DNA from: a virus
Virus record (IMG/VR): IMGVR_UViG_3300034063_001075
Coordinates: 1 to 64,000 of that record
Strand: one strand, 5' to 3'
DNA: 64,000 nucleotides
A program made the translations under genes and the position numbers. Shown here piece by piece: positions 2,573 to 57,905 of this stretch (its first letter is position 1; every line of letters begins with the position of its first letter). The notes below the pieces were generated by a model that was not told where the DNA came from, did no database searches, and worked only from the letters and a program-made list of their open reading frames with translations.

Positions 2573-2577
2573 GAAAT

Positions 2578-4300: not shown

Positions 4301-4303
4301 ACG

Positions 4304-5482
4304 TTATGCTACTTGTCCTTTCGATTTCTTTGCTCTGTCTGACGCGGCTTGCGCCTCTTCGGGGCTGTTCCATTGACGGGCATACCCAATGACCTGTCCG
4401 CTCGGAGCAGTAATCATCCTGCTGACGTTGTCAGGTAAGGGACCCGTCGGAGTGGTCGCTGTCCCCCCGCGTGGAAGTGGAACCTGTTGCGGTGTGGCTG
4501 GCTTGGGCTCCAAAGGGACTTGCCCAATTCCCTGCACGTTTCCGGTTTGAGGGGTGGGGGCGTTCTGCTTCGCGTAAATGTCTCGCGCAGTTTCGAGTGA
4601 CGCGCCTGAGAAAATTGAGCCGGAATAGCCAACCCCCGGTCTGTAGGTGTCTGTGCGACCATCGGGTTGATTGATGTTTGTTCCTTCTATGCCGGGAACG
4701 AAAACGTTTCGGGAAGCGGGTGTTAGCGTACTTTTTGTGACTGGGTCGTAGGCTGGCTGTAACTCTGGCATCCCTTTTCCGGAAGCGATTGCGCCGTCTA
4801 TCTCCATTCTCTGGCCCATGATGTCCGTGTTGGCCCACGATTTTCTAAACGGGTCTGACTCCCCAACAGGGGTTTCTGGACTGCCTGCGGCTTGCCAATC
4901 CTCGTAACGCTTTTTCGTTTCGTTGTTTATTACCTGCCGCCAATAATCGTTGTTTTGTTCAGAACGGTCTTTGAAGTCCCCGACAACGGTGTCCTTAACC
5001 GCTTCTGGCGTAGCGTTTGCCTTGTAGAACTCATCAAGATAGGCCCCGATATTTGAGGGGCTTCCCTGCGTCGGGTCGAAGTTGCCCGTCATGGACGGAG
5101 GGGGAGTATCGGGAAGCCGATTGGTGACGTCTTGATTCCCCATCGTCGGCAGAAACCCCCCTCCCGGCCCGATGCGCTGAATACCTTGTTCTGGCGATGA
5201 TTCAAACCCACCCCCCGGAGCGACGTCTTGGGCGATAGCCGCTTGTCGGGCGACTCCAATGTCACGGTCAGATGGGCCGACTAAGCCACCCGGAGTTTGG
5301 GCGGGGCCTTCGTAGCCACCCACGACAACGGGACCCGTAATATTCGGAGGCGTGAAAGTCGCCCCGGCTGGGGCCGGGGTTGGGGAGAAATTCGGAACGC
5401 CAGCAGTGTCCCTAGCAGCCGTCAACGCCTCGCTAGCAATGTCGAAAGGGCTTTTCGGGGGTTTACGTGGTTGTGGCGGCAT
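4304..5482 (-). CDS. Pro/Gly-rich putative internal virion protein
   Basis: 392-aa ORF preceded by an AT-rich promoter-like spacer (TTGCAT-N16-TATTAT on the minus strand). Confidence 0.5.
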   Translation of the reverse strand: MPPQPRKPPKSPFDIASEALTAARDTAGVPNFSPTPAPAGATFTPPNITGPVVVGGYEGPAQTPGGLVGPSDRDIGVARQAAIAQDVAPGGGFESSPEQGIQRIGPGGGFLPTMGNQDVTNRLPDTPPPSMTGNFDPTQGSPSNIGAYLDEFYKANATPEAVKDTVVGDFKDRSEQNNDYWRQVINNETKKRYEDWQAAGSPETPVGESDPFRKSWANTDIMGQRMEIDGAIASGKGMPELQPAYDPVTKSTLTPASRNVFVPGIEGTNINQPDGRTDTYRPGVGYSGSIFSGASLETARDIYAKQNAPTPQTGNVQGIGQVPLEPKPATPQQVPLPRGGTATTPTGPLPDNVSRMITAPSGQVIGYARQWNSPEEAQAASDRAKKSKGQVA

Positions 5483-10700: not shown

Positions 10701-11006
10701 AACGGCAGACTCAATCGGAGCACTTCCTGAAGATTGCCCCGAAACAGGAGCCGCTAGCATTTGTGCTACAAAAGAATCAGGAGCCCTCGAAGAGGGGGAA
10801 GCCGGGATGAACTGTTGGCCTTGATCGAATAGAAACGGAAGTTGAGGTGTCCCAATTACCGAAGGGGGAGGCGCAGGTGGCTTGGAAAACCGCGTATCGG
10901 AAACGGGGGTCTCAAGCCGACGCTCCTGTTCAACTACCGGGCTGGGTTGCCTAACAACCTGCTCCGGTAAGTTTGAAGTTTTTACAATGTCGTCTCTGTC
11001 AGCCAT
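7710..11006 (-). CDS. Pro/Ala-rich tail protein with C-terminal beta-rich (spike-like) domain
   Basis: 1098 aa; about 700 aa of Pro/Ser/Ala low complexity including (PA)n; C-terminus has short beta-strand repeats ending EVCVNGEPKYAYVLMS. Confidence 0.6.
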   Translation of the reverse strand: MADRDDIVKTSNLPEQVVRQPSPVVEQERRLETPVSDTRFSKPPAPPPSVIGTPQLPFLFDQGQQFIPASPSSRAPDSFVAQMLAAPVSGQSSGSAPIESAVQSAVSDALKNLTFNGYPVNFQNGNLDISIPAEALFTPKPSNAPSLFSLDVGPQVVSPPIQNSNPLPLLNIPTSPVEIPEIVSRPTPPSTQSTALNSEPVQVTAPPVTPALQRSEEPIRLDPDSRSAAISAGVPEATNVFMGAMSPSAFFPSAFSNNASNASQQNTNTDRDVRPSDSGRSGESAPPSMVETSAMFGALTPISTPFPRFEPESSFQLNPTSRPSSTFNESAPLVEPSSTSSASPTPLTASETLFVPVVVSAGSSSTSSTTQSQNSADSESASPATTTTSVPTPPPPPQTFFPTPSNPEPVPVPPPATPPAPQTLQPANPPAPTTAPAAEPAPAPATTPPTPAPATTPPTPAPAPAPAPAPAPAPAPAPAPAPAPAPAPAPAPAPAPAPAPAPAPAPAPAPAPAPAPAPAPAPAPTPPPTPTPTAPAPAPTPAPAPAPTPAPAPTPISAPSTGPVVPDVGTAPLPTATPAVAPTPTPPPPVPQPENPAPAPTPAATAPAPAPAPAPAPAPAPAPTPTPAPTTAPTSEPPAPTTAPSSFGSGYQAPENRPFGSDNDARMDNNVRNDPAYSQWGWGPSALASNEEKEAYYRVYGGTAQDSGGGGQTTPASNPAGSAGASMTEKNDKIDFTQTAQFLGNDRQNRGYETRDEFRERREILRSLGPEARAAVRAGDTTYFSQGYVPVFIGRGDRRRKVLLMSQTSHTEVIFGREGSERAGSLPDKAGYYTAGLPSGCPMDIIGYITPEPTSENVQTTKAAWRAVRHTGCNRGVGNDTYDRFAATLAEADKCGFQTYWGQNSKNFAELCLKETEAYLWAYCNNNQNYKMSAKQNEISVQLFSNSNNWSDRGIKASESYLYGYTTNAQQNFRIRSTGSLSKCEVWSSSGPFATMEIQGSNSTFRASANNDFSYLTQTTLRIQYANGDHSTLTPGSLYVNYSSGAYSRLFGGGLYVNNGSNYVDVRPPYGKDAYFQQVEVCVNGEPKYAYVLMSQPE
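9105..9690 (-). repeat. (Pro-Ala)n coding repeat
   Basis: GCAGGT/GCAGGC/GCGGGA/GCGGGT hexamer runs on the plus strand encode PAPAPA on the minus strand. Confidence 0.95.
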
Positions 11007-11011
11007 AAATC

Positions 11012-14000
11012 CTACGCAACAAGGTCCGGAAGTTTCACTTCAACAACCTCCTCCACCCAAACGCCGAGCCGCCAATGTTCTGCGCTTCGGGCAACCTCAA
11101 CCCACTGGCCCCAAGGAAGCCCAGTAGGTTCAGTCGCCGGAATAACAACTAGCTCTCCCCCAACGTTCGCAACGATTTGAGGGTGCAAACATTTACCCAC
11201 GCTGATTCTCACAACCTCCTTGGAAGTAGATTCGGTCGAGCTATCTGCGGTGGTGGTTGAAGCGTTGTTCGTCTGGGAAGAAGATGTTCCCGAGGAAACC
11301 GAATTAGTTGAGGACTGCGATTGCCCACTCTGCTGCCCCTGCGTCTGGGACTGACTTGTTTGTTGTCCTTGGGTCTGGGAGTTTGCCGCAACGTTGGTGT
11401 TGCTATCCGACGTGCTGCTCGAAGAAGAATTCGAAGTTCCGTTAGAGTTACTCTGGGTAGTTGTTGTCGAATTGTTGGTCCCTGAAGACGAAGAAACCGA
11501 AGACGAGTTTGTCGTTGAAGCGGTTTGAGAAGAAGACTGCCCCGAAGACTGCGATGTAGTGGCGACTTGCGAAGTACCGTTTGAAGTCGTGCTAGCAGTA
11601 GAGGTTCCTGAAGACTGCGACTGGGACTGACTCTGGCTTTGTCCTTGCGACTGGGACTGACTCTGACTCTGACTCTGGCCTTGCGATTGGGACTGGGCTT
11701 GGCCTTGGCTTTGGGACTGGCTTTGCCCCTGAGACTGGCTCTGACTCTGGCCTTGGCTTTGGGACTGGCTTTGCCCCTGAGACTGGCTCTGACTCTGGCC
11801 TTGCGATTGGGACTGGGCTTGGCCTTGGCTTTGGGACTGGCTTTGCCCCTGAGACTGGCTCTGGCTTTGCCCCTGAGACTGACTCTGGCTTTGCCCCTGA
11901 GACTGCCCCTGCGTATTTGTTTGGCTTTGCCCCTGAGATTGATTTTGACCTTGGTTCTGGCTCTGCGACTGAGACTGACTATTAGAAGACGAAGTCCCGT
12001 TAGAAGTTGAGGTAGATGAACCCGTTGAGGTTGAAGTGCTGCTTGAAGTCGAAGTTCCGGTAGATGTGGACGTCGAGGTTGATGTTCCCGTTGAAGTAGA
12101 AGTTCCGGTAGAAGTTGACGAAGACGTCGAGCTACTCGTTGAAGTTGAGCTTCCTGTAGAACTCCCACTAGAAGTCGAAGAGGAGGTCGAACTAGAAGTC
12201 GAAGTTCCGCTGCTGGTGGAGCTAGAAGTCGAAGAGGAGGTCGAACTAGAAGTCGAAGAGGAGGTCGAACTAGAAGTCGATGAAGACGTTCCGCTGCTGG
12301 TAGAGCTAGAACTAGAAGTCGAAGTTCCGCTGCTGGTGGAGCTAGAAGTCGAAGAAGACGTTGAAGAAGAGGTAGAACTGGATGTTCCGCTGCTGGTAGA
12401 GCTAGAACTAGAAGTCGATGAAGACGTTCCACTGCTGGTAGAGCTAGAAGTCGATGAAGACGTTCCGCTTGACGTCGAGCTAGATGTTCCGCTGCTGGTA
12501 GAGCTAGAAGTCGAAGAGGAAGTCGAGCTTCCACTGCTAGTAGAGCTAGAAGTCGAAGAAGACGTTGAAGAAGAGGTAGAACTGGATGTTCCGCTGCTGG
12601 TAGAGCTAGAAGTCGAAGAGGAAGTCGAGCTAGAAGTAGAACTGGATGTTCCGCTGCTGGTAGAGGTACCGCTTGAGGTCGAGGTGGAGGAAGTGGAGGA
12701 GGTGGAAGTGGATGTTCCTGTATTAGTCGAAGTAGAAGTCGAATTTCCCGTGGAAGTTGACGTCCCTGTGGAGGTGGAAGTGGAAGTCGAGGTGGAGGTT
12801 GACGTTCCGGTGGATGTTGAAGTTCCGGTAGAAGTAGACGTCGAAGTAGACGTTCCGGTGGAAGTCGATGTCCCGGTGGAAGTGGAAGTGGAAGTTCCGG
12901 TAGATGTGGACGTTGAAGTCGATGTCCCGGTGGAAGTGGAAGTTCCGGTAGATGTCGAAGTGGAAGTTCCAGTGGAGGTAGACGTGCTTGTAGACGTAGA
13001 AGTTCCAGTGGAAGTAGATGTCCCGGTTGACGTTGAAGTAGAGGTAGAGGTCGAGGTGCTGGTGGACGTTCCTGTCGAAGTGCTGGTGGACGTTCCTGTC
13101 GAAGTCCCGGTAGACGTCGAGGTGCTAGTGGAGGTGCTTGTTCCGGTTGAGGTAGATGTTCCGGTGGAAGTTGATGTCCCCGTAGTCGTAGAAGTGGACG
13201 TCGAGGTGCTGGTGGACGTTCCTGTCGAGGTAGAGGTCGAGGTAGAGGTCGAGGTGCTGGTGGACGTTCCGGTAGAGGTAGACGTTCCAGTTGAGGTAGA
13301 TGTCGAAGTGCTGGTAGACGTTCCAGTTGAGGTAGATGTTCCGGTAGAGGTAGACGTTCCAGTTGAGGTAGACGTTCCTGTCGTTGTGCTTGTACTCGTC
13401 GAAGTAGACGTTCCGGTGGAAGTGTTAGTTCCTGTCGTTGTGCTTGTACCCGTCGAAGTGTTAGTTCCGCTCGTTGTGCCACTCGATGTTCCCGAAGAAC
13501 TACTGCTTCCGGAACTTTGAACGGTCGCGTTTGAAGTTCGGTTTTCTGTCGGGTCGCTGGTCAGAGGAGCGCCTCTGCGAGATGACGTGACCGAATCTCT
13601 TGAACCAGTTTGGGTGGTAGACTGGCTCTGCCCTTGAGATTGGTTCTGAGACTGGCTCTGCCCCTGAGACTGGTTCTGGCTCTGCGACTGACTTTGTCCT
13701 TGGGATTGAGACTGGCCTTGGCTCTGGCTCTGGGACTGGCTCTGGCTCTGTCCTTGAGATTGAGACTGGCCTTGGCTCTGACTTTGAGACTGGGATTGGT
13801 TCTGGCTCTGCGACTGACTCTGAGACTGGGATTGGTTCTGGCTCTGGGATTGGTTTTGGCTCTGAGACTGGCTCTGGCTCTGAGACTGGCCTTGGCTCTG
13901 CGACTGACTCTGAGACTGGCTCTGAGACTGACTCTGGCCCTGAGACTGGCCTTGGCTCTGACTTTGAGACTGGCTCTGGTTTTGGCTCTGGCTCTGGGAC

Positions 14001-45001: not shown

Positions 45002-45403
45002 ATGAGACCTTCATGGGCTGAATTTGCAATGAGCGCGGCTGAAGTAGCCTCCTCTCGGTCGGAAGACCCGTGGGTCAAAGTCGGGGCCTGTGTCCTCCGA
45101 AAGGACCACAGCATAGCCGGGGTTGGGTACAACGGAGCGCCCTCTGGAGTCGAAATCGACTGGTCCGACCGGGAGAAACGAAGGCTCTATGTGATCCACG
45201 CGGAGGCCAATGCACTGAGGTATTTGAGGCCTGACGAGGGGGATATCATAGCCGTCACCCTAGCCCCATGTCCGAACTGCCTTACGCTAATTGCTTCCTA
45301 CCGCATTCCGACAGTGTTCTACAGAGATACATCGGAAACATACCCGATCGGGATAACGGAAAATGTTGCATCAGAGTTAGGCGTCGTGCTGCACCAGATT
45401 TAG
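45002..45403 (+). CDS. dCMP deaminase
   Basis: GYNG, HAEANAL, PCPNC zinc motifs. Confidence 0.9.
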   Translation: MRPSWAEFAMSAAEVASSRSEDPWVKVGACVLRKDHSIAGVGYNGAPSGVEIDWSDREKRRLYVIHAEANALRYLRPDEGDIIAVTLAPCPNCLTLIASYRIPTVFYRDTSETYPIGITENVASELGVVLHQI

Positions 45404-46016: not shown

Positions 46017-46805
46017 TCAGACAGGGGGCGGAGCAGGCAGGGCGAGGAGCGGCTCCCCGCTCTCTGTTGGCGACCCGCTCTCACATTCTTGCGGCCTTCT
46101 CTGTAGCGGCCTGCTTTGGACGTCAATCTGCTCCTCTGCTAGCTGAGACAGGAAGCCGATGTTCACTATGGTCTTCGACTCCTTGTCTCCTTGGTCTAGG
46201 CCCAAGGTCTGTCTGGCTACAGAGTTGAGGGAAGAGATATCTTTGGCCTTGGACAGAAGCTGAGGGCCGTTCATCTTCGCTACTGAGTCCGCAAAGACTA
46301 GGGAGGCCCTTGCCATCTTCTCTCTGTAGCTCTTACCCTGCTCGACTAGCTTAGAGACGGCGGCATTGGTCGCCGATTCGAATCTCGCCTGTGCCGCCTC
46401 ATGGAGGGCGTCTATCTCCCTAGCCCACCCCTCCCTGCTGAACCTAGCTGTGAGGGTCTGCACCCCGCACCCCATGTCCGCCGCTATGTCTGCATAGGTG
46501 TCGCCACGGGCACGGCGAATCCTAGCCAACATCCAATCGATTGAATCAGTAAAGGTATCGGTCCCCGACTTCATTCGCTTCTTCGTCGCATAGCTCCTCT
46601 TCTTCTTCTTAGCCGGAGGCGATTCAGGATCAGGGGACTCAGGAGAATCAGGCGTGCTAGCACTGCTAGCAACTTCAGACCCGGCAGCCTCCGGGTCAAT
46701 CGCCGGGTCAATCGCCGGGTCTTCCGGGGGAAGCGCTGGGTCACTGTTGTGGAGCGCTAGCACAGTATCGAGAAACTCTTCTGACGGTTGGTCGTTCTGT
46801 TCCAT
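46017..46805 (-). CDS. Terminase small subunit-like HTH protein
   Basis: GDTYADIAADMGCGVQTLTARFSREGW helix-turn-helix, helical oligomerisation-like region, ARQTLGL; upstream TTGCAA-N16-TAGCGT. Confidence 0.55.
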   Translation of the reverse strand: MEQNDQPSEEFLDTVLALHNSDPALPPEDPAIDPAIDPEAAGSEVASSASTPDSPESPDPESPPAKKKKRSYATKKRMKSGTDTFTDSIDWMLARIRRARGDTYADIAADMGCGVQTLTARFSREGWAREIDALHEAAQARFESATNAAVSKLVEQGKSYREKMARASLVFADSVAKMNGPQLLSKAKDISSLNSVARQTLGLDQGDKESKTIVNIGFLSQLAEEQIDVQSRPLQRRPQECESGSPTESGEPLLALPAPPPV

Positions 46806-46852: not shown

Positions 46853-46880
46853 TGATACCTGCTAGCAGGTTGGGGATAAG
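46853..46880 (+). promoter_or_regulatory. Early promoter motif, copy 1
   Basis: TGATAC-N14-GGGATAAG with ATG 7 nt downstream; overlaps the palindrome ACCTGCTAGCAGGT. Confidence 0.65.
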
Positions 46881-46887
46881 TCGCTGT

Positions 46888-47976
46888 ATGGAAAACATCA
46901 ACACCACAATCAACCTCACAGCAACTGAACTCAGCGCTCTCTCTGTTAAAGAGCTTCGCAAGCTCGCCAACGAACAGAGCCTCGGGTCCGGAGGCTGGAG
47001 GGCCACCGCAACCAAGGACGCTCTCGTCACCGCGCTCTCGACCGGACAGGTTCCCGCTTCGCCGACGAACTCGGCTGCTAGCGCGGCAACTCTCGCCGAT
47101 GCCATCGAACGTGTGATTTCCTCGGTCACACCTTCGCTCGACGAAGACCGTGTCCGCGAACTGATCGCGGAGATCGTCCCCACAATCGACTCCAACCGCC
47201 CCCGAGAGATTGAGGTCATCCGCCTCGACACCTCCAAGGTCAACGTGGGTCGCCAGCACTACCTGTTCGCACAGCTTCTTCAGTGGGCTGCTCTCCGGAT
47301 TCCGGTCATGCTCGTCGGCCCCGCTGGCTCTGGCAAATCGACCGCCGCTGAATTTATCGCCAAAGCGCTCACTCTGGAATTCTACCCGATGAGCGTGACG
47401 AACCAGACGAGCAAGTCCGATCTGATTGGCTACAAAGACGCGACCGGAAACTACCATCCTAGCATCTTCCGCCGCGCCTTCGAATTCGGTGGGGTCTTCA
47501 ACCTCGACGAGGTGGACAAGGGTAACGCGAACGTCCTCGCCGTGCTGAACTCGGCCTCGGCGAACGGTTACTGCTCGTTCCCCGACCGTGTCGTGCAAGC
47601 GCACCCCGACTTCGTCTTCATCGCCGCTGGCAACACCTACGGCCTCGGGCGGAACGCTCAGTTCGTCGGCTCCAATCAACTCGACGCCGCTACGCTCAAC
47701 CGTTTCGCCACTCTGTCGTGGGGTTACGACGAGTCGCTGGAGAGCGAAATCACCGCGCCGTTCGGTCAGACCGATTGGGTTCGGTTCGTCCAGAAGGTCC
47801 GCTCTGTCGTGGATTCGCTGGGCATCCGCCACATCGTCTCGCCCCGCGCTAGCATCCAAGGTTCACAGGCCCTCGCTGCGGGAATCGACCGCCATGACGT
47901 CGAGTCCGCCGTGCTCTGGAAAGGCCTCGACTCCGCTTCAGTGGAGAAGGTCCGCCAGAACCTCATCGCCGCCTAA
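46888..47976 (+). CDS. MoxR-type AAA+ ATPase (CobS-like) with N-terminal HEH/SAP-like domain
   Basis: GPAGSGKS, NLDEVD, DAATLNRF; N-terminal LSALSVKELRKLA..GSGGWR..ATKDALVTAL. Confidence 0.85.
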   Translation: MENINTTINLTATELSALSVKELRKLANEQSLGSGGWRATATKDALVTALSTGQVPASPTNSAASAATLADAIERVISSVTPSLDEDRVRELIAEIVPTIDSNRPREIEVIRLDTSKVNVGRQHYLFAQLLQWAALRIPVMLVGPAGSGKSTAAEFIAKALTLEFYPMSVTNQTSKSDLIGYKDATGNYHPSIFRRAFEFGGVFNLDEVDKGNANVLAVLNSASANGYCSFPDRVVQAHPDFVFIAAGNTYGLGRNAQFVGSNQLDAATLNRFATLSWGYDESLESEITAPFGQTDWVRFVQKVRSVVDSLGIRHIVSPRASIQGSQALAAGIDRHDVESAVLWKGLDSASVEKVRQNLIAA

Positions 47977-48025
47977 CCGGATTGGCACAGGGTCCGACCC
48001 CCTGTGCTAGCACCTCAACCAACTC

Positions 48026-48053
48026 TGAAACTCTGAAAACCTCTGTGGATAAG
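48026..48053 (+). promoter_or_regulatory. Early promoter motif, copy 2 (contains TGTGGATAA)
   Basis: TGAAAC-N14-TGGATAAG with ATG 6 nt downstream. Confidence 0.65.
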
Positions 48054-48059
48054 AACCCG

Positions 48060-48950
48060 ATGAAAACCAGCACCACCTTCGAAACCGATCACACGCTCGT
48101 CCGATTCCCTTCGTTCGCCGACTACGTGGCCGCATCTGAGGCCCCGAACCCGAGTTCCGAAATCGGCAACCATTTCGGCAAGGGCAACGAGTGGGCGGGA
48201 TACGCGACCCTCACCCAAGCCCGAGACCTCATGTCCTCCGGTTGGGAAGAAGGCGCGGCCCGAGTCCGCTCAATCTCCGACCGTGTCAAGCAAGCCATCC
48301 CCGATGCCGTGCTCAGCGCCTTCCGCCCCGAACAGGTTTGGGACGTCACAGGCGAGCAACTCGACGTGGGTCGCTTTCTCGACGGCGAGCCCGAGTGCTT
48401 CATGGACGAGGTGGTCCCCGATCGTTCCGAGCAAATCGACGGCAACGGCATTGTCCGCATCACGATCAACCTGTGGGCCTCTGCTGGAATCTCGCCCGAC
48501 GAACTCCGGACGCGAGGCGTCTTCGTCGCAGCACTGGCGGACGTGCTGGAATCGATCGGCTACCGCGCTCAGATCGACGGCTACGTTGCTAGCGCCACCC
48601 ATCACGACGTCAAAGGCAAGATGCTCAAGCGTCCGCTCGTCATCGCGTTCCCGATCAAACGCCCCGACGAGGCTCTGGAAATCGACCGCCTGTCGTTCGT
48701 GCTAGCTCACGCCGCCTCGCTTCGCCAGATCGGTTTCCATGTCATGGACGTTGTCGGGTCTCGCGCCAAATACTACGGCTCGCCCTGCACCTTGCCCAAA
48801 GTTTACGAGGGCCACGTTCCGGTCAACGCCCTGCACTTCCGTGACCTCACCGACAAGGATACGGCCAAGCAAATCCTCGACCAACTCAAACAGCTTGGGG
48901 TGGACCTCGACACCGACGACCTCTTCGAATCCAACGACGAGTGCTTCTGA
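48060..48950 (+). CDS. VWA-like partner of the AAA+ ATPase
   Basis: GEQLDVGRFLDGEPECF, RITINLWASAG (degenerate MIDAS); adjacent to MoxR. Confidence 0.6.
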   Translation: MKTSTTFETDHTLVRFPSFADYVAASEAPNPSSEIGNHFGKGNEWAGYATLTQARDLMSSGWEEGAARVRSISDRVKQAIPDAVLSAFRPEQVWDVTGEQLDVGRFLDGEPECFMDEVVPDRSEQIDGNGIVRITINLWASAGISPDELRTRGVFVAALADVLESIGYRAQIDGYVASATHHDVKGKMLKRPLVIAFPIKRPDEALEIDRLSFVLAHAASLRQIGFHVMDVVGSRAKYYGSPCTLPKVYEGHVPVNALHFRDLTDKDTAKQILDQLKQLGVDLDTDDLFESNDECF

Positions 48951-48987
48951 GGAATCCGGTGCGGGGTCCGATCCCCCGCGCCCCCGC

Positions 48988-49015
48988 TGATACACGCGCA
49001 ACCCCTGTGGATAAG
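48988..49015 (+). promoter_or_regulatory. Early promoter motif, copy 3
   Basis: TGATAC-N14-TGGATAAG. Confidence 0.65.
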
Positions 49016-49024
49016 ACTGAGACC

Positions 49025-49117
49025 ATGAACATATTCATCCCCATGCTTTTCTTCGTGATCATTCCCGCCGCTGGAGCGATCGCCATTCTCATCGCCGACC
49101 ATTACCGCAACGACTAA
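49025..49117 (+). CDS. 30-aa single-TM peptide (not in ORF track)
   Basis: MNIFIPMLFFVIIPAAGAIAILIADHYRND directly after promoter copy 3. Confidence 0.5.
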   Translation: MNIFIPMLFFVIIPAAGAIAILIADHYRND

Positions 49118-49121
49118 CAAC

Positions 49122-49379
49122 ATGACCGCCGAACCCACACTTCAAATCCGTCACGACCACCCCTCGCTTCGCCCGACCTTGGAAGAGGCTCAGCAATATG
49201 TCGGGGGGCTCGTCGAAATAGCTCCGGTCTACAACTCCGAATACCGTGACGCACAGCTTCTGGTCAACGAGGAGGGCCTCGTCCACGACCTACCACCCAA
49301 CGTCCTCGCTAGCATCTTCGCAGGTTACGAGATTCGCGGCAACGCCATGATCCTCTTGGGCGCGGCCAGATGGGATTGA
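49122..49379 (+). CDS. DUF3846-like protein
   Basis: TLEEAQQYVGGLVE, LVNEEGL, IRGNA. Confidence 0.7.
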   Translation: MTAEPTLQIRHDHPSLRPTLEEAQQYVGGLVEIAPVYNSEYRDAQLLVNEEGLVHDLPPNVLASIFAGYEIRGNAMILLGAARWD

Positions 49380-49425
49380 CCATGAACTCTTTCACCCGCT
49401 TCGAATCTCTGACCAGCACTGTGCG

Positions 49426-49453
49426 TGATATCTTCGAAACCCCTGTGGATAAG
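49426..49453 (+). promoter_or_regulatory. Early promoter motif, copy 4
   Basis: TGATAT-N14-TGGATAAG with ATG 6 nt downstream. Confidence 0.65.
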
Positions 49454-49459
49454 ACTACG

Positions 49460-49759
49460 ATGAAAAACCAATTCAGCCGCAAACATTACGAGGCGATCGC
49501 CTCCGCTCTCGCCAACCGCATCGCCCTTGAGGGCGCTCAGTCACCCGCCGCTGGCGGCATTCGCCTCGCCGCTCTCGACCTGTCCTACGTCTTCGCCGCC
49601 GATAATCCGCGCTTTGACCGTGGCCGATTCCTGTCCTCCGCTGGCGCAATCGACACGACCTTCCGACCGTTTCGCCGCCCCGAGCCCGACAACGGCCAGC
49701 GCACCCCCCGCTTCAGTGCGCTTCAGCCTTCCGGATCGCCCTTCGCTCGTTCTTATTGA
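49460..49759 (+). CDS. Hypothetical early protein
   Basis: SRKHYEAIA...ADNPRFDRGRF. Confidence 0.65.
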   Translation: MKNQFSRKHYEAIASALANRIALEGAQSPAAGGIRLAALDLSYVFAADNPRFDRGRFLSSAGAIDTTFRPFRRPEPDNGQRTPRFSALQPSGSPFARSY

Positions 49760-50023
49760 CCGACTGCCATCAACCCGCATATACCAATCATCACCTTGCC
49801 ATCTATGAATCTCGATCTTCTCCAGTCCGTGCTTGAGGCGTTCGTTTTCCTCACCGTGCTCATCGCTACTGCGATTGCGCTATGGCCCGAACCCGCCGTC
49901 GAACCCGAACCCGAGCATGATAGTCCGTTCGACGACTTCGATACTCAGCCTCAGTGCGAGGAGTTTTACGCCGACTAGTAAGCAACCTTCCATACACCAA
50001 CACCAACCAACACACCAACAACC

Positions 50024-50227
50024 ATGCCCGAAACCATCGAACCCAACGCCGTCCTTCCTACGATTGACGGACCACTCAAGCTGAGCCAGCAACACGTGGC
50101 GTTCCTCGCCGTGCTAGCTGCTCTCAGCGGCGACCCGAGCGAGGCTTTGCAATTTGCACAGACCGAGCCCGACTACTTCATTTCACAGTCCAACGACTGG
50201 GCGGCGGAACAGGAGGTGTCGCTTTGA
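50024..50227 (+). CDS. Hypothetical early protein
   Basis: Follows a C/A-rich leader. Confidence 0.55.
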   Translation: MPETIEPNAVLPTIDGPLKLSQQHVAFLAVLAALSGDPSEALQFAQTEPDYFISQSNDWAAEQEVSL

Positions 50228-50544
50228 GAAACGGACCCTTCACTCTTGACGAGGTCTTCGACCGGATCGCCGAAATCCTCGACCTCCCCGAGGAAACGAA
50301 CGACCTCTTCAATGCGTTTCTAGACGAGGCTCCCTGCGGCGAGGAAGAGGACGAGAGTCCACTTCTTGATATCCTCCCGAACGCAGAGCAAGTCGAGGAC
50401 GGCTTCGTCTATCGCGTCTCAGTCAATGAATCGGAAAGCGGCAACACGCTAGCAAGCGCCGTCTTCCAAACAGAGGAGCAGGGCCAGCAAGCCATCGACC
50501 TTCTCCTTCTTCTCCAAGAACTCAACGAACACGGACTGCACTAA
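50224..50544 (+). CDS. Acidic hypothetical protein
   Basis: 106 aa, very D/E-rich. Confidence 0.5.
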   Translation: MRNGPFTLDEVFDRIAEILDLPEETNDLFNAFLDEAPCGEEEDESPLLDILPNAEQVEDGFVYRVSVNESESGNTLASAVFQTEEQGQQAIDLLLLLQELNEHGLH

Positions 50545-50548
50545 ACTT

Positions 50549-50926
50549 ATGATACCACTGCACAACACAGTAATGGGCCAGCGATTGATTGAGGGCACGT
50601 TGCCCGACATCGCTCGCGAACTGAAAGCGCTCAACGTGAACATGAATCGGATTGCAGAAGCGTTCGAAAAGAAAGAGGTCTTTTCTTCTTCGTCCTCTTC
50701 TAGCTCTTCGGTGACTACCGTGGCGACCTGTCCGCCACCTCCGGTTTGTCCGGTTCCGGAAGGGACCTGTCCGGTCTGCGTAGTTGAAGCGCTTGTCGAA
50801 CACTTCGAAAGCATACATGGCGAGGGCGCTTGCGATTGTCGCCCCGAACCCGAGAACGAGGGATACACCTGCCCGATCTGTATCGCTCGCCTGTTTATTG
50901 ACGAGAACGATGGGAGGGAACACTGA
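50549..50926 (+). CDS. Hypothetical protein with Cys motifs
   Basis: MGQRLIEGTLPDIAREL; CPVC, CDC, CPIC. Confidence 0.55.
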   Translation: MIPLHNTVMGQRLIEGTLPDIARELKALNVNMNRIAEAFEKKEVFSSSSSSSSSVTTVATCPPPPVCPVPEGTCPVCVVEALVEHFESIHGEGACDCRPEPENEGYTCPICIARLFIDENDGREH

Positions 50927-51123
50927 TGGAACCCAAAGAAGTCACAGAGCTAGAACGTGCGCGTCAGATGAATCACCGCCACATCAACCTCACGTTCCGC
51001 ACCGAGATTACCACCGACGACATACCGGACGCCGCGCTGTTGGGATACCTCAAGAAGCGTTCGCTGTCCGAACTGTCGCAACGCCGCACCGAGATCATCG
51101 ACGACGAAGGGAGGGGACAATGA
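50926..51123 (+). CDS. Hypothetical protein
   Basis: Coupled stop/start junctions. Confidence 0.5.
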   Translation: MEPKEVTELERARQMNHRHINLTFRTEITTDDIPDAALLGYLKKRSLSELSQRRTEIIDDEGRGQ

Positions 51124-51392
51124 TGCTAGCAGACTTTGACCCCAAACCTTTCGTGGGGTGGGCGCGGAACATGGCATCCATCCTCAAGGACGGCGGCACG
51201 TGGGCTGTGCCTATGAACCAAACAGCGTATCGCTTCGACCACAAAGCCAAGCAACTTGTCTTGGTCTATGGTCCGGAGGACGAGTTGTTTGAAAAGACCC
51301 GCTCTGTCTTTTCCGAAATTGGCTACACCGTCATCGCCGATCCCGACCGTCCTTTGGGCGGCGAGTGTCCTGCGACCATCTTCTCCATCTGA
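51120..51392 (+). CDS. Hypothetical protein
   Basis: ATGA overlap; LKDGGTWAVP. Confidence 0.55.
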   Translation: MMLADFDPKPFVGWARNMASILKDGGTWAVPMNQTAYRFDHKAKQLVLVYGPEDELFEKTRSVFSEIGYTVIADPDRPLGGECPATIFSI

Positions 51393-51397
51393 CCACC

Positions 51398-51802
51398 ATG
51401 CACCTCTCCGAGTTACCCGACCAGACCACCCCGCTTTGCCTCTTGTATCACAACGGCACGGTCAACATGGTCAATGACCGAGAGGACACGATGGAGATTT
51501 CTCCGGTCCAGACCCTAGCTGTGGCCCAACTTATGGACCGCGATAACCTTTGGGAAAGTTTCCGAGCGAACGACAGCTTCATGCAGTTGTTCCGCTTTGT
51601 CTTTCCGGAGGAACATATCGCCCCCGAACGCAAAGCTAGCACCGGAGTGCGGCACGTGTCGGGCATGATAGTCCTGTTGGCCGCAGCTAGGCGGGATCGG
51701 CTCCGCGCTTTTCTCCGTTTCCCCGAATCCTATTTACACCCCAAGGCACAGTTAGGACTGGCCGACATGATGATAAGCCTGTCGAAACCAAGCTGTTGCT
51801 GA
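51398..51802 (+). CDS. Hypothetical protein
   Basis: ATG shortly after the previous stop. Confidence 0.45.
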   Translation: MHLSELPDQTTPLCLLYHNGTVNMVNDREDTMEISPVQTLAVAQLMDRDNLWESFRANDSFMQLFRFVFPEEHIAPERKASTGVRHVSGMIVLLAAARRDRLRAFLRFPESYLHPKAQLGLADMMISLSKPSCC

Positions 51803-51826
51803 TTTCTAAAACTCCCTGTGGATAAG
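51800..51826 (+). promoter_or_regulatory. Early promoter motif, copy 5
   Basis: TGATTT-N13-TGGATAAG with ATG 6 nt downstream. Confidence 0.6.
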
Positions 51827-51832
51827 ACTACG

Positions 51833-52051
51833 ATGAACGCTGAATTTACACCCACCGCTTGCGATAAGGAGAGTTATTACATCACCGTGGGCGACTACGT
51901 TGCCCACAACCGGAAGCTTTATCGCGTTGTCCGCATATTCGAAGACCCGAGTATCGAACCTCCCGCTGGTAATACCTTTCTAGAACTTATCAGCATCAAA
52001 AACCTTTCTATCTTGGTCGTCCGTGACAACACCGTCGAAGTGCTGGAATGA
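51833..52051 (+). CDS. Small SH3-like beta protein
   Basis: ITVGDYV...YRVVRI; starts directly after the promoter motif. Confidence 0.5.
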   Translation: MNAEFTPTACDKESYYITVGDYVAHNRKLYRVVRIFEDPSIEPPAGNTFLELISIKNLSILVVRDNTVEVLE

Positions 52052-52439
52052 CATGAAGCGCCACTACCTTGTTCACACTCGCGGCCACTCCTATGCGTTC
52101 ACCGCAGAAGAAGGCAAAGAGCTACAGCTTCCCCCTCGTTTGCGGAAGCGGGTCGCCGCTCACCTCAAAATTCACGATATGCTTTTGGATGAATCGGTAA
52201 CGATTTTCCAAGGCAGCACCGGAATCGTTCTTCAACGAGTCCGCCCCGATTGGAGTCACGCTTATGAAAATTAAAATCAACACAACCGTTGACGTCGATC
52301 CGGTGAAGTGGGTTTTGAACCGCTACGGAACGACCGTGAAGTCCGACCGCAATGTCCAGTGCCGGAAGCTAGCAGAGGAGATTCGTGAAGGCTGCTTGCG
52401 AGCCATCGATGAATATTTAGAGCAATACGACCCAAGCAA

Positions 52440-52694
52440 ATGAAAACTCAACTCACCCAAGAAGAGGTATCCACCCTCCAAACGGAACACCAAGAAATGT
52501 TCGTCGCGTTGCTAGAAGCTGTGTCGGCTCTCGACCGGATCGATGAGTTGCTGTTGGAACAAACCAACAGCCCCCGCGAATGCGCCCTTGGCGAAGTGAG
52601 TCGTGGCCTCGCTGTGATTTGCCGCGTAGCCGCTCGTCACCGCGACTCCGTTTACCGCCACACCATAAGTCGTTTGGAATCAAGGGGTTCGTGA
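52440..52694 (+). CDS. Hypothetical protein
   Basis: ATGA overlap with a small upstream ORF (52264-52443). Confidence 0.5.
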   Translation: MKTQLTQEEVSTLQTEHQEMFVALLEAVSALDRIDELLLEQTNSPRECALGEVSRGLAVICRVAARHRDSVYRHTISRLESRGS

Positions 52695-52719
52695 TACTTT
52701 GATTTGCCCTGTGGATAAG
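52692..52719 (+). promoter_or_regulatory. Early promoter motif, copy 6
   Basis: TGATAC-N14-TGGATAAG. Confidence 0.65.
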
Positions 52720-52761
52720 TAACTGTCAGCACACCAACCATCAACCAACACATCAACAACC

Positions 52762-53106
52762 ATGCCTAAAAAATCCGCCTCCGAAATCGCCGCTGAGAAT
52801 CTTGAGAAAGACCTCACGTCGAAATACCCGACTCCGAAGATCGTTGCCGAGTTGATCGAAAAGGAATTCATCGCGGCCCCTTCGTTGTCCCGCATCGTGA
52901 CGCAGTTGGCTTATTACGCCTTCCGCGACACGTCTGACAAGGAACGCACCGTGAAAGCGTTCAGTGACCTCATTCACTTCTGTGAAATGGCTGAGGATCA
53001 AGTCAAAGAGGGTCTCACAGCCATCGGCATTCTCAATGGCTTGGCCGAAGACTTGGTTGACACGGCAACAAAGCGGGAGGCCAACCCCTTTGCGGGGGTG
53101 AACTGA
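52762..53106 (+). CDS. Hypothetical early protein
   Basis: C/A-rich leader; 114 aa helical. Confidence 0.6.
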   Translation: MPKKSASEIAAENLEKDLTSKYPTPKIVAELIEKEFIAAPSLSRIVTQLAYYAFRDTSDKERTVKAFSDLIHFCEMAEDQVKEGLTAIGILNGLAEDLVDTATKREANPFAGVN

Positions 53107-53210
53107 TCCCGCTGCGGCGGAGTCGTCCGGTGGTTTTATGTCCCACTGGTTCTCCACGACTCCGCCGCCCAACTTTCAAAATCCAACTAACCACTAACTA
53201 ACCTAGCACC

Positions 53211-53456
53211 ATGCCACTAACTAAAACTGAACTGACAAAACGCCGCCTTGAATTCTACCGAGGATACGAAGCGGATCGTGAAGAAGAAGTCGCCACGCTC
53301 AAACGTGGGCAAGACGAACTGATTAACCTCATTCGCGCTCTTGTCCTCGTTTCCCGCCGCGACGAAACGATCAACAACATCATTAAAGAACGCGAGTCGT
53401 TTGTGGATCACTCTTACGACTCCGAATGTGAGGAATACGAAAAGAAGAACAACTAA
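53211..53456 (+). CDS. Hypothetical coiled-coil protein
   Basis: Leader ACTAACTAACCTAGCACC-ATG shared with the next gene. Confidence 0.6.
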   Translation: MPLTKTELTKRRLEFYRGYEADREEEVATLKRGQDELINLIRALVLVSRRDETINNIIKERESFVDHSYDSECEEYEKKNN

Positions 53457-53473
53457 CTAACTAACCTAGCACC

Positions 53474-54613
53474 ATGTCAACTACCGAACACAGCCACGCA
53501 ATCGTGGAATCCAGCACACCCTCGACCGCCAGCATCGATCTTTCGACGCTAACCGTTGCGGGTCTCCGCAAGCTCGCTTCTAATCGCGGGATTGGAACGG
53601 GTGGGTGGCGGGTCTCCGCGACTCGCGACCAACTCATCAACGCGATCACCCTTGGTCACGTCCCGACCCCCACGCCCGTTGCTCCGGCTCCGGCCTCCGT
53701 TGCTCCTGCTCCTGCTCCGGTCGCCCCGAGCGCTAGCACCGTGGTCTCACCTGCGATCCAACCGTCCCGACCCGCACCCGTGCTGGTTTATCCGGACGTC
53801 GATCCTAGCTTCGTCGTTTCCAAGGAGGTTGCCGAACTCGTCGATGTCGTTCTGCAAATCCCCAACGGCAAGATTCGCAACGTCCTTGTCACCGGACCTG
53901 CGGGTTGCGGCAAGACTGAGCTAGCACGTTTCTCTGCGGCTACGGGCAAAGCTCCGTTCTTTGAGTTTTCCATGCCGCTGTATCGTGAACCTCTCGACCT
54001 CTTCGGCGAGAAGTGCGTAGCGGACGGCAAGACGTTCTTCCTGCCTAGCTTGTTCATCCAAGCTTTGGAAACACCTCACGCTGTTATCCTCCTCGACGAG
54101 GTTAACCGTGTTGCTCCGCTCCTCGCCAACGGTCTGCTTCCGTTGCTCGACCACCGCAAGGAGGTTTATGTGGAAGGCCTTAACCGGATCGTCCGTGTTG
54201 CCGAGAACGTCACGTTCTTCGCCACGGCGAACATCGGCGTCGAATACACCGGAACATTCCGCCTCGACTCCGCTCTGGCCTCGCGCTTCCCGTATCGCAT
54301 TGAGGTGACCTACCTCGACCGCGAGTCCGAATCCAAGTTGCTTGCCGAGCGTTGCGGGATTACCCCCGAGGATGCTCAGATGCTAGCAACCGTGGCCGAG
54401 ACGATCCGCGCCAAATCCGCCGACTTCGGTGGAACCCTGTCGCACTCAGTCTCGACCCGCGAACTCATCGGCGCGGGGTGGCTGGTCGCTGGCGGTCTGC
54501 CTACGGGCAAGGCCCTCACGCACACCATTGTCCCCACCTTCGATCCCGAGGGTGCGGAGTCTTCGGAACGGGCACAAGTCCTTCAAACTGTTCAGCTTGT
54601 CTGTGGTCTCTGA
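53474..54613 (+). CDS. MoxR-type AAA+ ATPase (CbbQ/NirQ/NorQ-like) with N-terminal HEH/SAP-like domain
   Basis: GPAGCGKT, LLDEVNR, LDSALASRF, STRELI; N-terminal LSTLTVAGLRKLA..GTGGWR..ATRDQLINAI. Confidence 0.85.
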   Translation: MSTTEHSHAIVESSTPSTASIDLSTLTVAGLRKLASNRGIGTGGWRVSATRDQLINAITLGHVPTPTPVAPAPASVAPAPAPVAPSASTVVSPAIQPSRPAPVLVYPDVDPSFVVSKEVAELVDVVLQIPNGKIRNVLVTGPAGCGKTELARFSAATGKAPFFEFSMPLYREPLDLFGEKCVADGKTFFLPSLFIQALETPHAVILLDEVNRVAPLLANGLLPLLDHRKEVYVEGLNRIVRVAENVTFFATANIGVEYTGTFRLDSALASRFPYRIEVTYLDRESESKLLAERCGITPEDAQMLATVAETIRAKSADFGGTLSHSVSTRELIGAGWLVAGGLPTGKALTHTIVPTFDPEGAESSERAQVLQTVQLVCGL

Positions 54614-54638
54614 TACCAGATAGCAACCTGTGGATAAG
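54611..54638 (+). promoter_or_regulatory. Early promoter motif, copy 7
   Basis: TGATAC-N14-TGGATAAG. Confidence 0.65.
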
Positions 54639-54737
54639 TAACTGAACAGAACTTTCCATCCACCCCTCGCCGGAAGGGGTAAAGCTCCCAACAGAGCATC
54701 CGGCCAACTTTCCAAAAACACCAACCAACAACTGACC

Positions 54738-56849
54738 ATGTCTCAATATTCATCATTCGCCGATTACCACCGTCAACGTGCGGCTAGCTCCGGTGCAGCT
54801 ATGAAGCGCCGTGCCTCTACTTGGTTCTACGAAGAGAAGACTGAGGACCGTAGCGACCGTAGCTGGAAGAACTACGAAGATGACGAACTCTTCGATGCCG
54901 AGGCCTACGATGGTTCCAAGTATTCAGCCTCCGCTTCCCTTGGCCGCTATTGGGGTAGCTACTCCTCCTACGGGGACTCCGATAAAAAGAAATCCAAGAA
55001 GCAGGAGAACTCCGAAAAGCTAGCTCGCTCACTCAAAGCTGTGGCGCGGTCATGCAATGCGATTCGGTCTACCGTTGGGCGCGGCAAAGACCTTTCCCTC
55101 AAGGTGAAATGGAGCAGTGGCTTTGACGGTAACAACGTCCGTCAGAATGACGTGATAGTGCTTTCGCCCGATACGATCTTACAGACCAAGGTCAAAGAGA
55201 ACTGGGACGAAGGCAAACGCTCTGACGCTCTCGTTGGTGACGCACTTACCGCCGCCGCTCAGAAACGCACGATCACTCCCTCTGTTGTGGCGGAAGCTGT
55301 ATTGGCCTCCCAAACCGACCCCGATGCCGAGACTGCCCGACTACTGTGGTCCGCTGTCGAGACGGACGTTGCCCAATCCGCCCTGCTTAACGACTACCGT
55401 GGCGCGGCTGTTTACTTTGCTGCTAGCAACGCGTTCCACTCTTCCGACGAATACCGGACAGTCGTGGAAAACTCTTTCACGGACGGTCAAACCCGCAAGT
55501 CTGATGCCGCTACCGTGGCGCTGGCTTGGAACATCCTCCACCAGAAAAAGCTAGAGCTTCCGGAGGACGTTAGAGAACTCACTGCTACTGCGATGCGTGA
55601 ATTCGCAAAAGCCAAGACGTGTCGCGATCGTTGGAACGCTTCTCTTCGCGCCGTCAAACTTCTCCGCTCGCTTGATCCCGAGCAACCTCCGCAGGAGAAC
55701 CCGCCCTCCCCACCCGAGGAAGAAAGCGCAAACCAAAACCCCAACGGGGAGGGCGGGGATGCGGAGCAGGATGCTTCCGAGGAAACTAGCGTAGTTAAAA
55801 ATGGCGCTGGGCAGATTGGTATGTCCGATCTCCTTGGCGACCTCGTTGAGAACACAACAGGTCCGGTTCAATCGAACACCCAAGACGTGGAAGAGATTGC
55901 CGAGGAAGACGAGTCGTCCCTCAACTCCCGAAACACCATCGACGATGAGTCTAGGCACACCCGTTTGCACGACCACCAACAACTAAACGGTTGCCGCTCT
56001 GCGGTTGTGGCCCCCGCAACCAAGGCCCTGCTAGCAGGTTACAACGGGTTGGTTCGCCGCCTTTCCGGCTTGGCCGATTTGTTCTCTACCGTCAACACAG
56101 TCGAATCCTACGGTCGCCGTTCCGGTGTGCTTGACGATGCCAAGCTGTGGTCCGTTCCGTCCGGTGAAACAAACGTCTTCATCCGCCGAGACGAGACAGG
56201 CGAAAAACGGGAGGTTTCAATCGCTGTGCTTGTCGATCTTTCCGGTTCGACCGGATGCCAGATAGACACGTCTTTCGGCGGTTTCGCCGACTTTAGAGAA
56301 AGTGTATCGTTCGAAGAGCGTGTAAAGCGCCTTAACAAAACGGATGAGGACTATCCGCAACACGTTCCGATTTCCGTTCATCTTAAACGGGCGGCGTCCA
56401 TCTTAACTGAGGCTCTCCGTGCTTCTGATACCAACACTGGCGTCCGCATTCAAACTTACGGACATTATTGTGGGCACGTCGAGTATTACGGCCAGACCGC
56501 CAACTTGGTTCAAGGCGACAACGGTGGCGGGACCGACGAAGCAGGTGCGCTAGCACGGACTGTCAAACACTTTACCGAAAGCGACACTCGCGATTGCCGT
56601 AAGATCGTAATCTGCATTGGGGATGGTGAGACTGATTCAGCACACCTCCGCAAGATCGTTGATGCGTCTGCCAAGCTAGGCGTCGAAGTCTATTCCATTC
56701 TTGTAGCGCATCACGAAGGGCGCATCAAACAGCACGGCGAAGTTGCCTTCGGCAAGGGCCGCTTCTGCGGTCTGTCGATTGATACCGCGAAAAACCTTCC
56801 GACTGTCCTCACTTCGTTCGTCACCCGCATCCTTTCGAAAGCCCGTTAA
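54738..56849 (+). CDS. VWA-domain protein (CobT/NorD-like partner)
   Basis: Acidic linker, RSGVLD, MIDAS VDLSGS, GGGT, IGDGE. Confidence 0.8.
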   Translation: MSQYSSFADYHRQRAASSGAAMKRRASTWFYEEKTEDRSDRSWKNYEDDELFDAEAYDGSKYSASASLGRYWGSYSSYGDSDKKKSKKQENSEKLARSLKAVARSCNAIRSTVGRGKDLSLKVKWSSGFDGNNVRQNDVIVLSPDTILQTKVKENWDEGKRSDALVGDALTAAAQKRTITPSVVAEAVLASQTDPDAETARLLWSAVETDVAQSALLNDYRGAAVYFAASNAFHSSDEYRTVVENSFTDGQTRKSDAATVALAWNILHQKKLELPEDVRELTATAMREFAKAKTCRDRWNASLRAVKLLRSLDPEQPPQENPPSPPEEESANQNPNGEGGDAEQDASEETSVVKNGAGQIGMSDLLGDLVENTTGPVQSNTQDVEEIAEEDESSLNSRNTIDDESRHTRLHDHQQLNGCRSAVVAPATKALLAGYNGLVRRLSGLADLFSTVNTVESYGRRSGVLDDAKLWSVPSGETNVFIRRDETGEKREVSIAVLVDLSGSTGCQIDTSFGGFADFRESVSFEERVKRLNKTDEDYPQHVPISVHLKRAASILTEALRASDTNTGVRIQTYGHYCGHVEYYGQTANLVQGDNGGGTDEAGALARTVKHFTESDTRDCRKIVICIGDGETDSAHLRKIVDASAKLGVEVYSILVAHHEGRIKQHGEVAFGKGRFCGLSIDTAKNLPTVLTSFVTRILSKAR

Positions 56850-56899: not shown

Positions 56900-57136
56900 A
56901 TGGAAACACCCACAACAACAGCCCCCGTCAACCGCACCCGAATCCCCAGCCTCGTCAACCGAGCCGCTCTACGAAAGCTGCTCCTCGACATTGCGGCTGA
57001 GGAGAAGGGCCACTTGCCGTCCTGCTATCACCTCAAGCGTGTAGCAGATTCTGTCTTCGACGAGGCCGAGGCCGCGCTCCGGACCTTCGCCCGTAACAAG
57101 GTCCGCTCCGTTAGAAAGGGAAAGACCATCCAGTAA
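56900..57136 (+). CDS. Histone-fold protein (alpha3-truncated, phage-type)
   Basis: SLVNRAALRKLLL (a1) - KRVADS (L1) - long a2 - KGKTI (L2); basic; 78 aa. Confidence 0.55.
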   Translation: METPTTTAPVNRTRIPSLVNRAALRKLLLDIAAEEKGHLPSCYHLKRVADSVFDEAEAALRTFARNKVRSVRKGKTIQ

Positions 57137-57488: not shown

Positions 57489-57905
57489 ATGCAAACGTTC
57501 CTACCTTATCCCAACTTTCACGACTCTGCCCGAGTCCTCGACAATCGGCGTTTAGGCAAGCAACGGGTTGAGACGCTTCAGATTCTCAAAGCTCTCAGCC
57601 TCCCCACTTACGGTTGGCAAAACCACCCCGCTGTCAAAATGTGGCGCGGCTTTGAGCGGGGGCTCGCCGTCTACGGCGTAGTGATCTGCAACGAGTGGCT
57701 TCGGCGTGGTTTCAACGACACCTGCCTCGACAAGATTCGTCTGTATCTCAACGTGCATCCGACTGGGGGCACGATCCCGCCGTGGATCGACGACGAACAA
57801 TTCTGTCGGTCTCACCAATCCAATCTCATCCGAAAGGATCGCGCTCACTACGCCCCTTTCTTCCCCAACGTTCCGGACAACCTCCCGTATGTCTGGCCCA
57901 ACTGA
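57489..57905 (+). CDS. Pyrimidine dimer DNA glycosylase-like (MSMEG_6728 family)
   Basis: MQTFLPY, LDNRRLGKQRVE, NHPAVKMWRG, SHQSNL, LPYVWP. Confidence 0.85.
   Translation: MQTFLPYPNFHDSARVLDNRRLGKQRVETLQILKALSLPTYGWQNHPAVKMWRGFERGLAVYGVVICNEWLRRGFNDTCLDKIRLYLNVHPTGGTIPPWIDDEQFCRSHQSNLIRKDRAHYAPFFPNVPDNLPYVWPN

Follow-up and report, generated by a model that had tools for sequence, protein, structure and literature searches.

Why should a phage carry two different MoxR-class AAA+ ATPases, each followed by the gene of its own putative VWA-fold partner, and why should both begin with the same small domain? The question is raised by IMG/VR virus record IMGVR_UViG_3300034063_001075, of which positions 1 to 64,000 (hereafter the window) were analysed; they are the first 64 kb of a phage genome of 76,033 bp, bounded by direct terminal repeats and with a completeness rating of 100%. 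A preliminary description of the window had located the two pairs and had tentatively joined them to a nearby histone-like gene in a single system. Both ATPase open reading frames (ORFs) and both pairs do lie where it placed them, and we regard them, with fair confidence, as two independent MoxR-type remodelling machines, each equipped with a swappable targeting head that probably binds nucleic acid. The features on which this reading rests are as follows.

46888–48950, plus strand: pair 1 (ATPase 1 and partner 1)
46888–47976, plus strand: ATPase 1, 362 residues, MoxR-class AAA+ (AAA_5; PHROG 249), Walker A GPAGSGKS at residue 144
46927–47046, plus strand: N-terminal module of ATPase 1, about residues 14–53, with a GSGGWR insert in the inter-helix loop
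48060–48950, plus strand: partner 1, DUF7192/PHROG 1909, VWA/MIDAS-type predicted fold without a MIDAS motif; longest ORF from TTG 47982
53474–56849, plus strand: pair 2 (ATPase 2 and partner 2)
53474–54613, plus strand: ATPase 2, 379 residues, MoxR-class AAA+ of NorQ/CbbQ type (AAA_5 and CbbQ_C lid), Walker A GPAGCGKT at residue 141
53537–53656, plus strand: N-terminal module of ATPase 2, about residues 22–61, with a GTGGWR insert
54738–56849, plus strand: partner 2, 703 residues, C-terminal VWA domain, MIDAS motif DLSGS at residues 500–504

Two divergent motors and their partners

Both ATPases score above the Pfam cut-off of 22 bits for AAA_5 (64.2 bits for ATPase 1 and 62.7 bits for ATPase 2) and retain all family-invariant columns (G-P-G-K of Walker A, DE of Walker B, N, R and R), of which the N and the two R columns are read as sensor 1, arginine finger and sensor 2. 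The MoxR-class assignment is thereby upheld. The divergence of the two pairs was also described correctly: the AAA+ cores are about 30% identical in an alignment of 151 columns and 12% gaps (E 6e-10), and the partners are unrelated by sequence. The closest solved relatives of both ATPases are midasin AAA modules, CbbQ, CobS and NorQ, the midasin modules being the best sequence matches (E 1e-21 to 5e-25). ATPase 2 additionally matches the CbbQ_C lid (PF08406; 36.2 bits, cut-off 20.6) and is related to NorQ with E 7.4e-10. CbbQ_C has no match in ATPase 1 of the window, and in relatives of ATPase 1 it scores 16.6–18.8 bits, below threshold.

The VWA claim held fully for one partner and in part for the other. 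Partner 2 has an intact MIDAS motif: none of 35 relatives departs from D500, S502, S504 or D629-G630, and the T and D of the GxT and DG motifs are present. The protein itself scores 16.1 bits against Pfam VWA, where the cut-off is 23.8, and its relatives have Pfam matches to CobT_C or VWA (CobT_C in 11 of the 35, best E 3e-15); on these sequence criteria partner 2 is assigned as a CobT_C-like VWA protein. Most of its relatives also carry an HExxH and an EDRRID motif at about residues 150–230 (for example, the protein encoded at 10857–12860 of locus L147), a region that no Pfam model matched. The HExxH is lost in partner 2 and in divergent relatives (loci L082, L083, L084 and L097), the three most similar ones among them. 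The N-terminal domain thus appears zincin-like and, in the window protein, degenerate; this fusion of a metallopeptidase-like domain to a CobT_C-type VWA domain may merit a study of its own.

Partner 1 belongs to the Pfam family DUF7192 (E 1.5e-36), not to Pfam VWA, and its VWA character emerges from the fold alone. ATG 48060 is probably its start, rather than TTG 47982, because the repeated motif CTGTGGATAAG stands at 48043–48053 and the model leaves residues 1–23 of the longer version disordered. Foldseek matches an AlphaFold2 model built from 39 homologues (predicted local distance difference test, pLDDT, 81.5) best with the VWA domain of NorD as present in NorQD complexes (E 4.4e-5, probability 1.00), and VIA-align places the MDN1 MIDAS domain first (Z 8.0, root-mean-square deviation (rmsd) 3.4 over 154 residues), with NorD (Z 7.7) and the Rea1 MIDAS domain (Z 7.4) also at the top. 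A Z of about 8 lies at the margin of what the tool calls common, and support for the VWA assignment comes from the Foldseek match and from the uniformity of the list, whose other 47 rows are nearly all VWA-type domains. Partner 1 is accordingly modelled as a VWA/MIDAS-type fold that is closest to NorD and midasin. The metal-binding motif itself is missing: partner 1 has no DxSxS, and N163 occupies the site that follows the first core strand (N in 18 of the 39 relatives, D in 3). Conserved in DUF7192 instead are G124, D128, G135-P137-E138, R248-R249, E256 and Y265-G266. A literature search on DUF7192 found nothing.

One N-terminal module on both ATPases

That both ATPases begin with the same module is confirmed by a gap-free alignment over 43 residues, 22 of which are identical (51%; 77% positives; pairwise E 5e-17); in ATPase 2 a Pro/Ala-rich linker follows. 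A six-frame scan found only these two copies of the GGWR-type module in the 76,033 bp genome. At the DNA level the module regions match in 74 of 132 columns, which indicates that the sharing is old; a recent gene conversion between the ATPase genes was ruled out on the same count.

A second claim, that the module follows the helix-extension-helix pattern of SAP and Rho-N domains, is likewise supported by several comparisons. Pfam searches of 22 module instances (E up to 1) returned SAP for 18 (best E 5.6e-6), Rho_N for five and HeH for four, and a profile search against PDB sequences put the Ku70 SAP domain first (E 0.0096) and Mu-like prophage gp35 next. In the AlphaFold2 model (pLDDT 82), helices at 14–23 and 37–46 enclose an extended segment with a short turn (29–34) that is made by the GGWR insert. 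Rho-N is prominent among the best fold matches of the predicted module (Z 5.8, rmsd 1.6 over 42 residues), and further matches are the SAP domains of Ku70 (Z 4.1), FAN1 and MKL1 (both Z 4.0), LEM (Z 3.7), the C-terminal region of T4 endonuclease VII, and the SAP domains of Hcc-1, SLX4 and PIAS1. Low Z values are expected for about 45 residues, and the list of matches is still coherent. The phage modules share the pattern L..L.V.eLR..a....G..a.K..Li.aL with SAP, HeH, Rho_N and LEM domains, but add a five-residue GxGGW insert between the helices that would form a short extra helical turn, and both window copies fall below strict Pfam thresholds (the ATPase 2 module scores 13.2 bits for this class, cut-off 23.9). 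These predictions and profile matches support a SAP/HeH/Rho_N-class module with a helix-extended-helix fold, and such a module probably binds nucleic acid.

Several points weigh against a nucleic-acid-binding head on a remodelling motor. The ATPase 1 copy of the module has no Pfam match at E 1, and the 55-residue module matches known folds with weak statistics (Foldseek E >1, Z at most 6.1). HeH/SAP-class domains can bind proteins as well, and its fold matches include LEM-BAF and MANF-BiP entries; the net charge of the module is small (+1 in ATPase 1, +3 in ATPase 2). Finally, no substrate can be named for either machine.

A common, optional head on two common cassettes

The distribution of the module was followed with a hidden Markov model in the best 120 homologue clusters of each ATPase family, and in viral loci from profile-guided scans in which 80 IMG/VR loci were fetched per family. 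The SAP-like head is at the N-terminus of 57 of the 120 ATPase 1 clusters and 12 of the 120 ATPase 2 clusters, and in the loci it is found on 20 of 81 ATPase 1 genes and on none of 80 ATPase 2 genes. The remaining family members have a Cys-rich or Zn-ribbon-like N-domain, another one, or none. The SAP-like head is therefore optional, one of several alternative N-terminal domains in both ATPase families.

Nor is the module confined to these ATPases. Its profile found 589 proteins at E up to 0.001 among 1.84 billion representatives, and the best 150 of these comprise 32 of the present ATPases, 73 proteins with tandem copies in other architectures, 26 short proteins and 19 other single-copy contexts. 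Because the profile finds so many other architectures, the module is assigned to a broad, mobile HeH/SAP class. The tandem arrays hold two to nine HeH/SAP-like repeats in proteins of 150 to 3,700 residues, and the N-termini of some of the very large ones resemble phage virion polyvalent proteins. A module-specific association with other genes of the loci was considered and rejected, as among 15,343 ORFs none other than ATPase ORFs carries the module. When the 53–55-residue modules were compared by tblastn with 50,697 deposited phage records, nothing matched at E 0.05, although sensitivity is low with queries this short, and a DNA pattern for the GGWRVSA-type module had no match in IMG/VR. Its own orthologues apart, the ATPase 2 module is nearest to modules of the ATPase 1 orthologue clade (identity 0.50–0.51), other ATPase 1-family modules reaching at most 0.45. 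Such a pattern would fit if the module passed between co-resident genes long ago or if both copies were under shared selection, but over 45 residues it is only suggestive.

The pairs themselves are conserved. ATPase 1 has DUF7192 as its sole conserved neighbour, present in 80 of 81 loci, and partner 2 stands beside ATPase 2 in 68 of 80, so each pair forms a cassette in its own right that recurs across many viral contigs. Apart from this genome, no locus examined has the two cassettes within 10 kb of each other, and a second ATPase positive for CbbQ_C is absent from all 20 viral records with a module-bearing ATPase 1, seven of which are at least 94% complete; sub-threshold CbbQ_C matches in these records comprise two inside the ATPase 1 gene and one in a 367-residue frame of an 11%-complete fragment. 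Single-protein scans of IMG/VR for close relatives found none, and relatives among the matches listed in metagenome and genome scans are at most 40% identical. The double arrangement with one shared head subtype is thus unusual, but a lineage-specific detail; what the genome presents is a real but fairly ordinary domain arrangement, in which two common phage cassettes carry a common optional head.

Among cultured phages, the cassette of ATPase 1 and DUF7192 occurs in 101 deposited records, 88 of them from Mycobacterium phages, most of which show two DUF7192-like places. In Mycobacterium phage LeBron (64330–73453, locus L229), as in other Cluster L-type phages, the same cassette is formed by gp128 (2291–3535 of the locus) and gp127 (3758–4630), but gp128 has a Cys/His-rich, Zn-ribbon-like N-terminus in place of the SAP-like module. 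Loci of the ATPase 2 family have neighbours of their own: nrdA/nrdB lie within 5 kb of the cassette in roughly 15–20 of 80 (for example, L133, L110, L149, L101 and L142), 20 loci have an endonuclease close by, and an Hsp20 gene is found near the cassette in 13. These neighbours are a hint that, in the nrdA/nrdB-bearing group of phages, the cassette is connected with metalloenzyme maturation.

Proposed mechanism

The composition of the cassettes invites comparison with known pairs of motor and adaptor, namely NorQ/NorD, CbbQ/CbbO, CobS/CobT and the midasin AAA ring with its MIDAS domain. By analogy, each cassette would comprise a hexameric MoxR-class AAA+ motor and a VWA-fold protein acting as the adaptor between this motor and a protein substrate. 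Cassette 1 combines a CobS-like ATPase with DUF7192, a predicted VWA fold that has lost its metal-binding MIDAS site. In cassette 2 a NorQ/CbbQ-like ATPase stands with a CobT_C-like VWA protein that keeps its MIDAS motif but whose zincin-like N-domain is without HExxH. The mechanism proposed here is taken from the cryo-electron microscopy study of NorQD (PDB 9qh6, 9qhe; PMC13036017): the VWA-fold partner probably contacts both hexamer and substrate, and ATP hydrolysis would remodel the target. NorQD has a finger that inserts into the pore, and a candidate for such an element in DUF7192 is its conserved segment DVxGxxxDVGRYLxGxPE.

The phage proteins resemble NorQ/NorD in the AAA_5 core and CbbQ_C lid of ATPase 2, in its partner of roughly 700 residues with a C-terminal MIDAS-intact VWA domain, and in the model of partner 1. 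They differ from it in that NorQ has no N-terminal domain, whereas in the phage ATPases Walker A is preceded by a SAP-like head and a linker of about 130 residues; the phage also has no nitric oxide reductase as a target, partner 1 lacks the MIDAS residues and partner 2 has its degenerate N-domain. Midasin/Rea1 provides the best sequence match of both ATPases and the top structural match of partner 1, but it is one giant eukaryotic chain, whereas the phage motors and adaptors are separate small proteins.

The feature without a counterpart in NorQ is thus the variable N-terminal domain, which would set the site of motor action and which, in its SAP/HeH form, suggests nucleic acid. One GxGGWR head subtype on both ATPases would most likely bring the two machines to one site, probably DNA or another nucleic acid, or else a shared partner protein.

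Alternative functions

One or both cassettes could instead serve in counter-defence, disabling or remodelling a host anti-phage system with a variable N-domain and a VWA adaptor that are tuned to the target. By analogy, such a role could be modelled on bas54_0063, a MoxR ATPase of Escherichia phage Bas54 that is specifically required against the predicted defence system DS-28 (PMC13716836), and it would suit cassettes that are mobile, patchy and found in variable neighbourhoods, and whose frequent N-domain swaps may be of the kind typical of conflict genes. However, PADLOC matches are weak and at the level of the P-loop only, and nothing ties the SAP-like head to a defence target. We consider counter-defence unlikely here.

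A role in auxiliary metabolism is suggested by annotation: PHROG 249, to which ATPase 1 belongs, is labelled 'porphyrin biosynthesis'/CobS-like, and phage cobS and cobT are commonly listed as auxiliary metabolic genes. The pairs would then be CobS/CobT-like chelatase motors, or NorQD-like chaperones that insert metal into a host or phage metalloenzyme. In favour of this, ATPase 1 is weakly similar to solved CobS (PDB 9ujv; E 3.9e-8), CobT_C (PF11775) matches relatives of partner 2, and nrdA/nrdB and Hsp20 accompany the ATPase 2-family cassette in the share of viral loci given above. Yet ATPase 1 scores 32.8 bits against the CobS equivalog TIGR01650, for which the cut-off is 558.55, and its partner is DUF7192 rather than CobT. 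The complete genome, moreover, has no CobN-Mg_chel match and no ribonucleotide reductase, partner 1 is without a metal-binding MIDAS site, and a SAP-like head would not be expected on a metabolic chelatase motor. ATPase 1 falls outside CobS and is, on its sequence features, a protein that works like a MoxR motor; a metabolic function for the pairs is quite improbable.

The histone-like neighbour

The preliminary description had suggested that the two SAP-tethered MoxR/VWA machines and an adjacent histone-fold protein remodel nucleoprotein complexes as one chromatin or host-takeover system. Two further elements bear on this.

56900–57136, plus strand: basic protein of 78 residues ending in KGKTIQ, possible alpha3-truncated histone-like fold; directly downstream of partner 2
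48043–48053, plus strand: CTGTGGATAAG motif, one of eight, upstream of partner 1
Starts at 49005, 49443, 51816, 52709, 54628, 56883 and 57471, plus strand: the other seven CTGTGGATAAG motifs

The 78-residue protein has two detectable homologues in 5.8 billion clusters and no Pfam match. In the ESM Atlas it falls among small viral proteins, and every one of the nearest named clusters belongs to a CBFD_NFYB_HMF or histone family, at feature scores (0.79–0.83) below the Atlas lead threshold of 0.9. Its model (pLDDT 0.58) has TM-scores of 0.57–0.58 to a Bdellovibrionota histone cluster and to H4. A profile search against the PDB returned no histone, and Pfam finds none in the genome either. Alpha3-truncated phage histones are a described class (PMC11390915), although their C-terminal tetramerisation helix is missing from the 78-residue protein; the model makes it possible that this is an alpha3-truncated histone-like protein, its identity as a histone being unproven.

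The eight CTGTGGATAAG motifs, exact or near-exact and all on one strand, compare with 0.67 expected by chance. They lie 5' of plus-strand genes that include partner 1, partner 2 and the histone-like gene, which may be co-regulated because the same motif precedes each of them; a degenerate copy at about 46868–46878 lies some 10 nt 5' of the ATPase 1 start. CTGTGGATAAG includes a DnaA-box-like TGTGGATAA; often TGATAC stands about 20 nt upstream of it and a start codon follows within a few bases. From its sequence and placement, CTGTGGATAAG looks like a repeated promoter or regulatory element of the gene block.

Common regulation, a SAP/HeH-like module and histone-fold look-alikes would all suit a chromatin system, but its parts do not travel together. 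Searched against 227 loci translated in six frames (210 being those of ATPase relatives), the profile of the 78-residue protein matched nothing even at E 10, and a scan of IMG/VR with its alignment found nothing; a conserved 127-residue ORF downstream of partner 2 in 17 relatives was rejected as a histone-like counterpart (no alignment at E 100). Each cassette occurs alone and in varied contexts. With the head common in both families and no histone-like relative near the cassettes, the architecture shows no link to histone genes at the sequence level, and we set the chromatin or host-takeover system aside as very improbable. The same small chance is left to a version peculiar to this lineage, in which SAP heads would tether both motors to DNA, where the motors would act with the alpha3-truncated histone-like protein on nucleoprotein complexes, in chromatin remodelling or takeover of the host nucleoid.

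Genomic surroundings

The 76,033 bp genome encodes a large terminase, an integrase, a helicase/exonuclease and a DNA polymerase, and from about 46.8 kb on it holds many small plus-strand genes. Two further genes lie near the pairs.

45002–45403: dCMP deaminase, near pair 1
57489–57905: DenV-like pyrimidine-dimer glycosylase, near pair 2

Divergent from ATPase 1 is a minus-strand ORF (46017–46709) with weak matches to PHROG DNA-binding families (phrog_664, E 1.8e-6). The N-terminal part of its product is rich in Pro, Glu and Ser, and the ORF overlaps a long alternative GTG start of the ATPase 1 ORF.

Implications for phage CobS-like ATPases

Phage cobS and cobT are routinely entered as auxiliary metabolic genes, and a large share of CobS-like phage ATPases carry SAP/HeH or Zn-ribbon-like heads. 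These heads, the DUF7192 partner without MIDAS, a score far under the CobS cut-off and the missing CobN together count against a cobalamin role. A testable alternative is protein remodelling that is targeted and possibly DNA-associated, and it could be taken to the bench with cultured carriers of the cassette, Cluster L-type mycobacteriophages such as LeBron with its gp128/gp127 pair.

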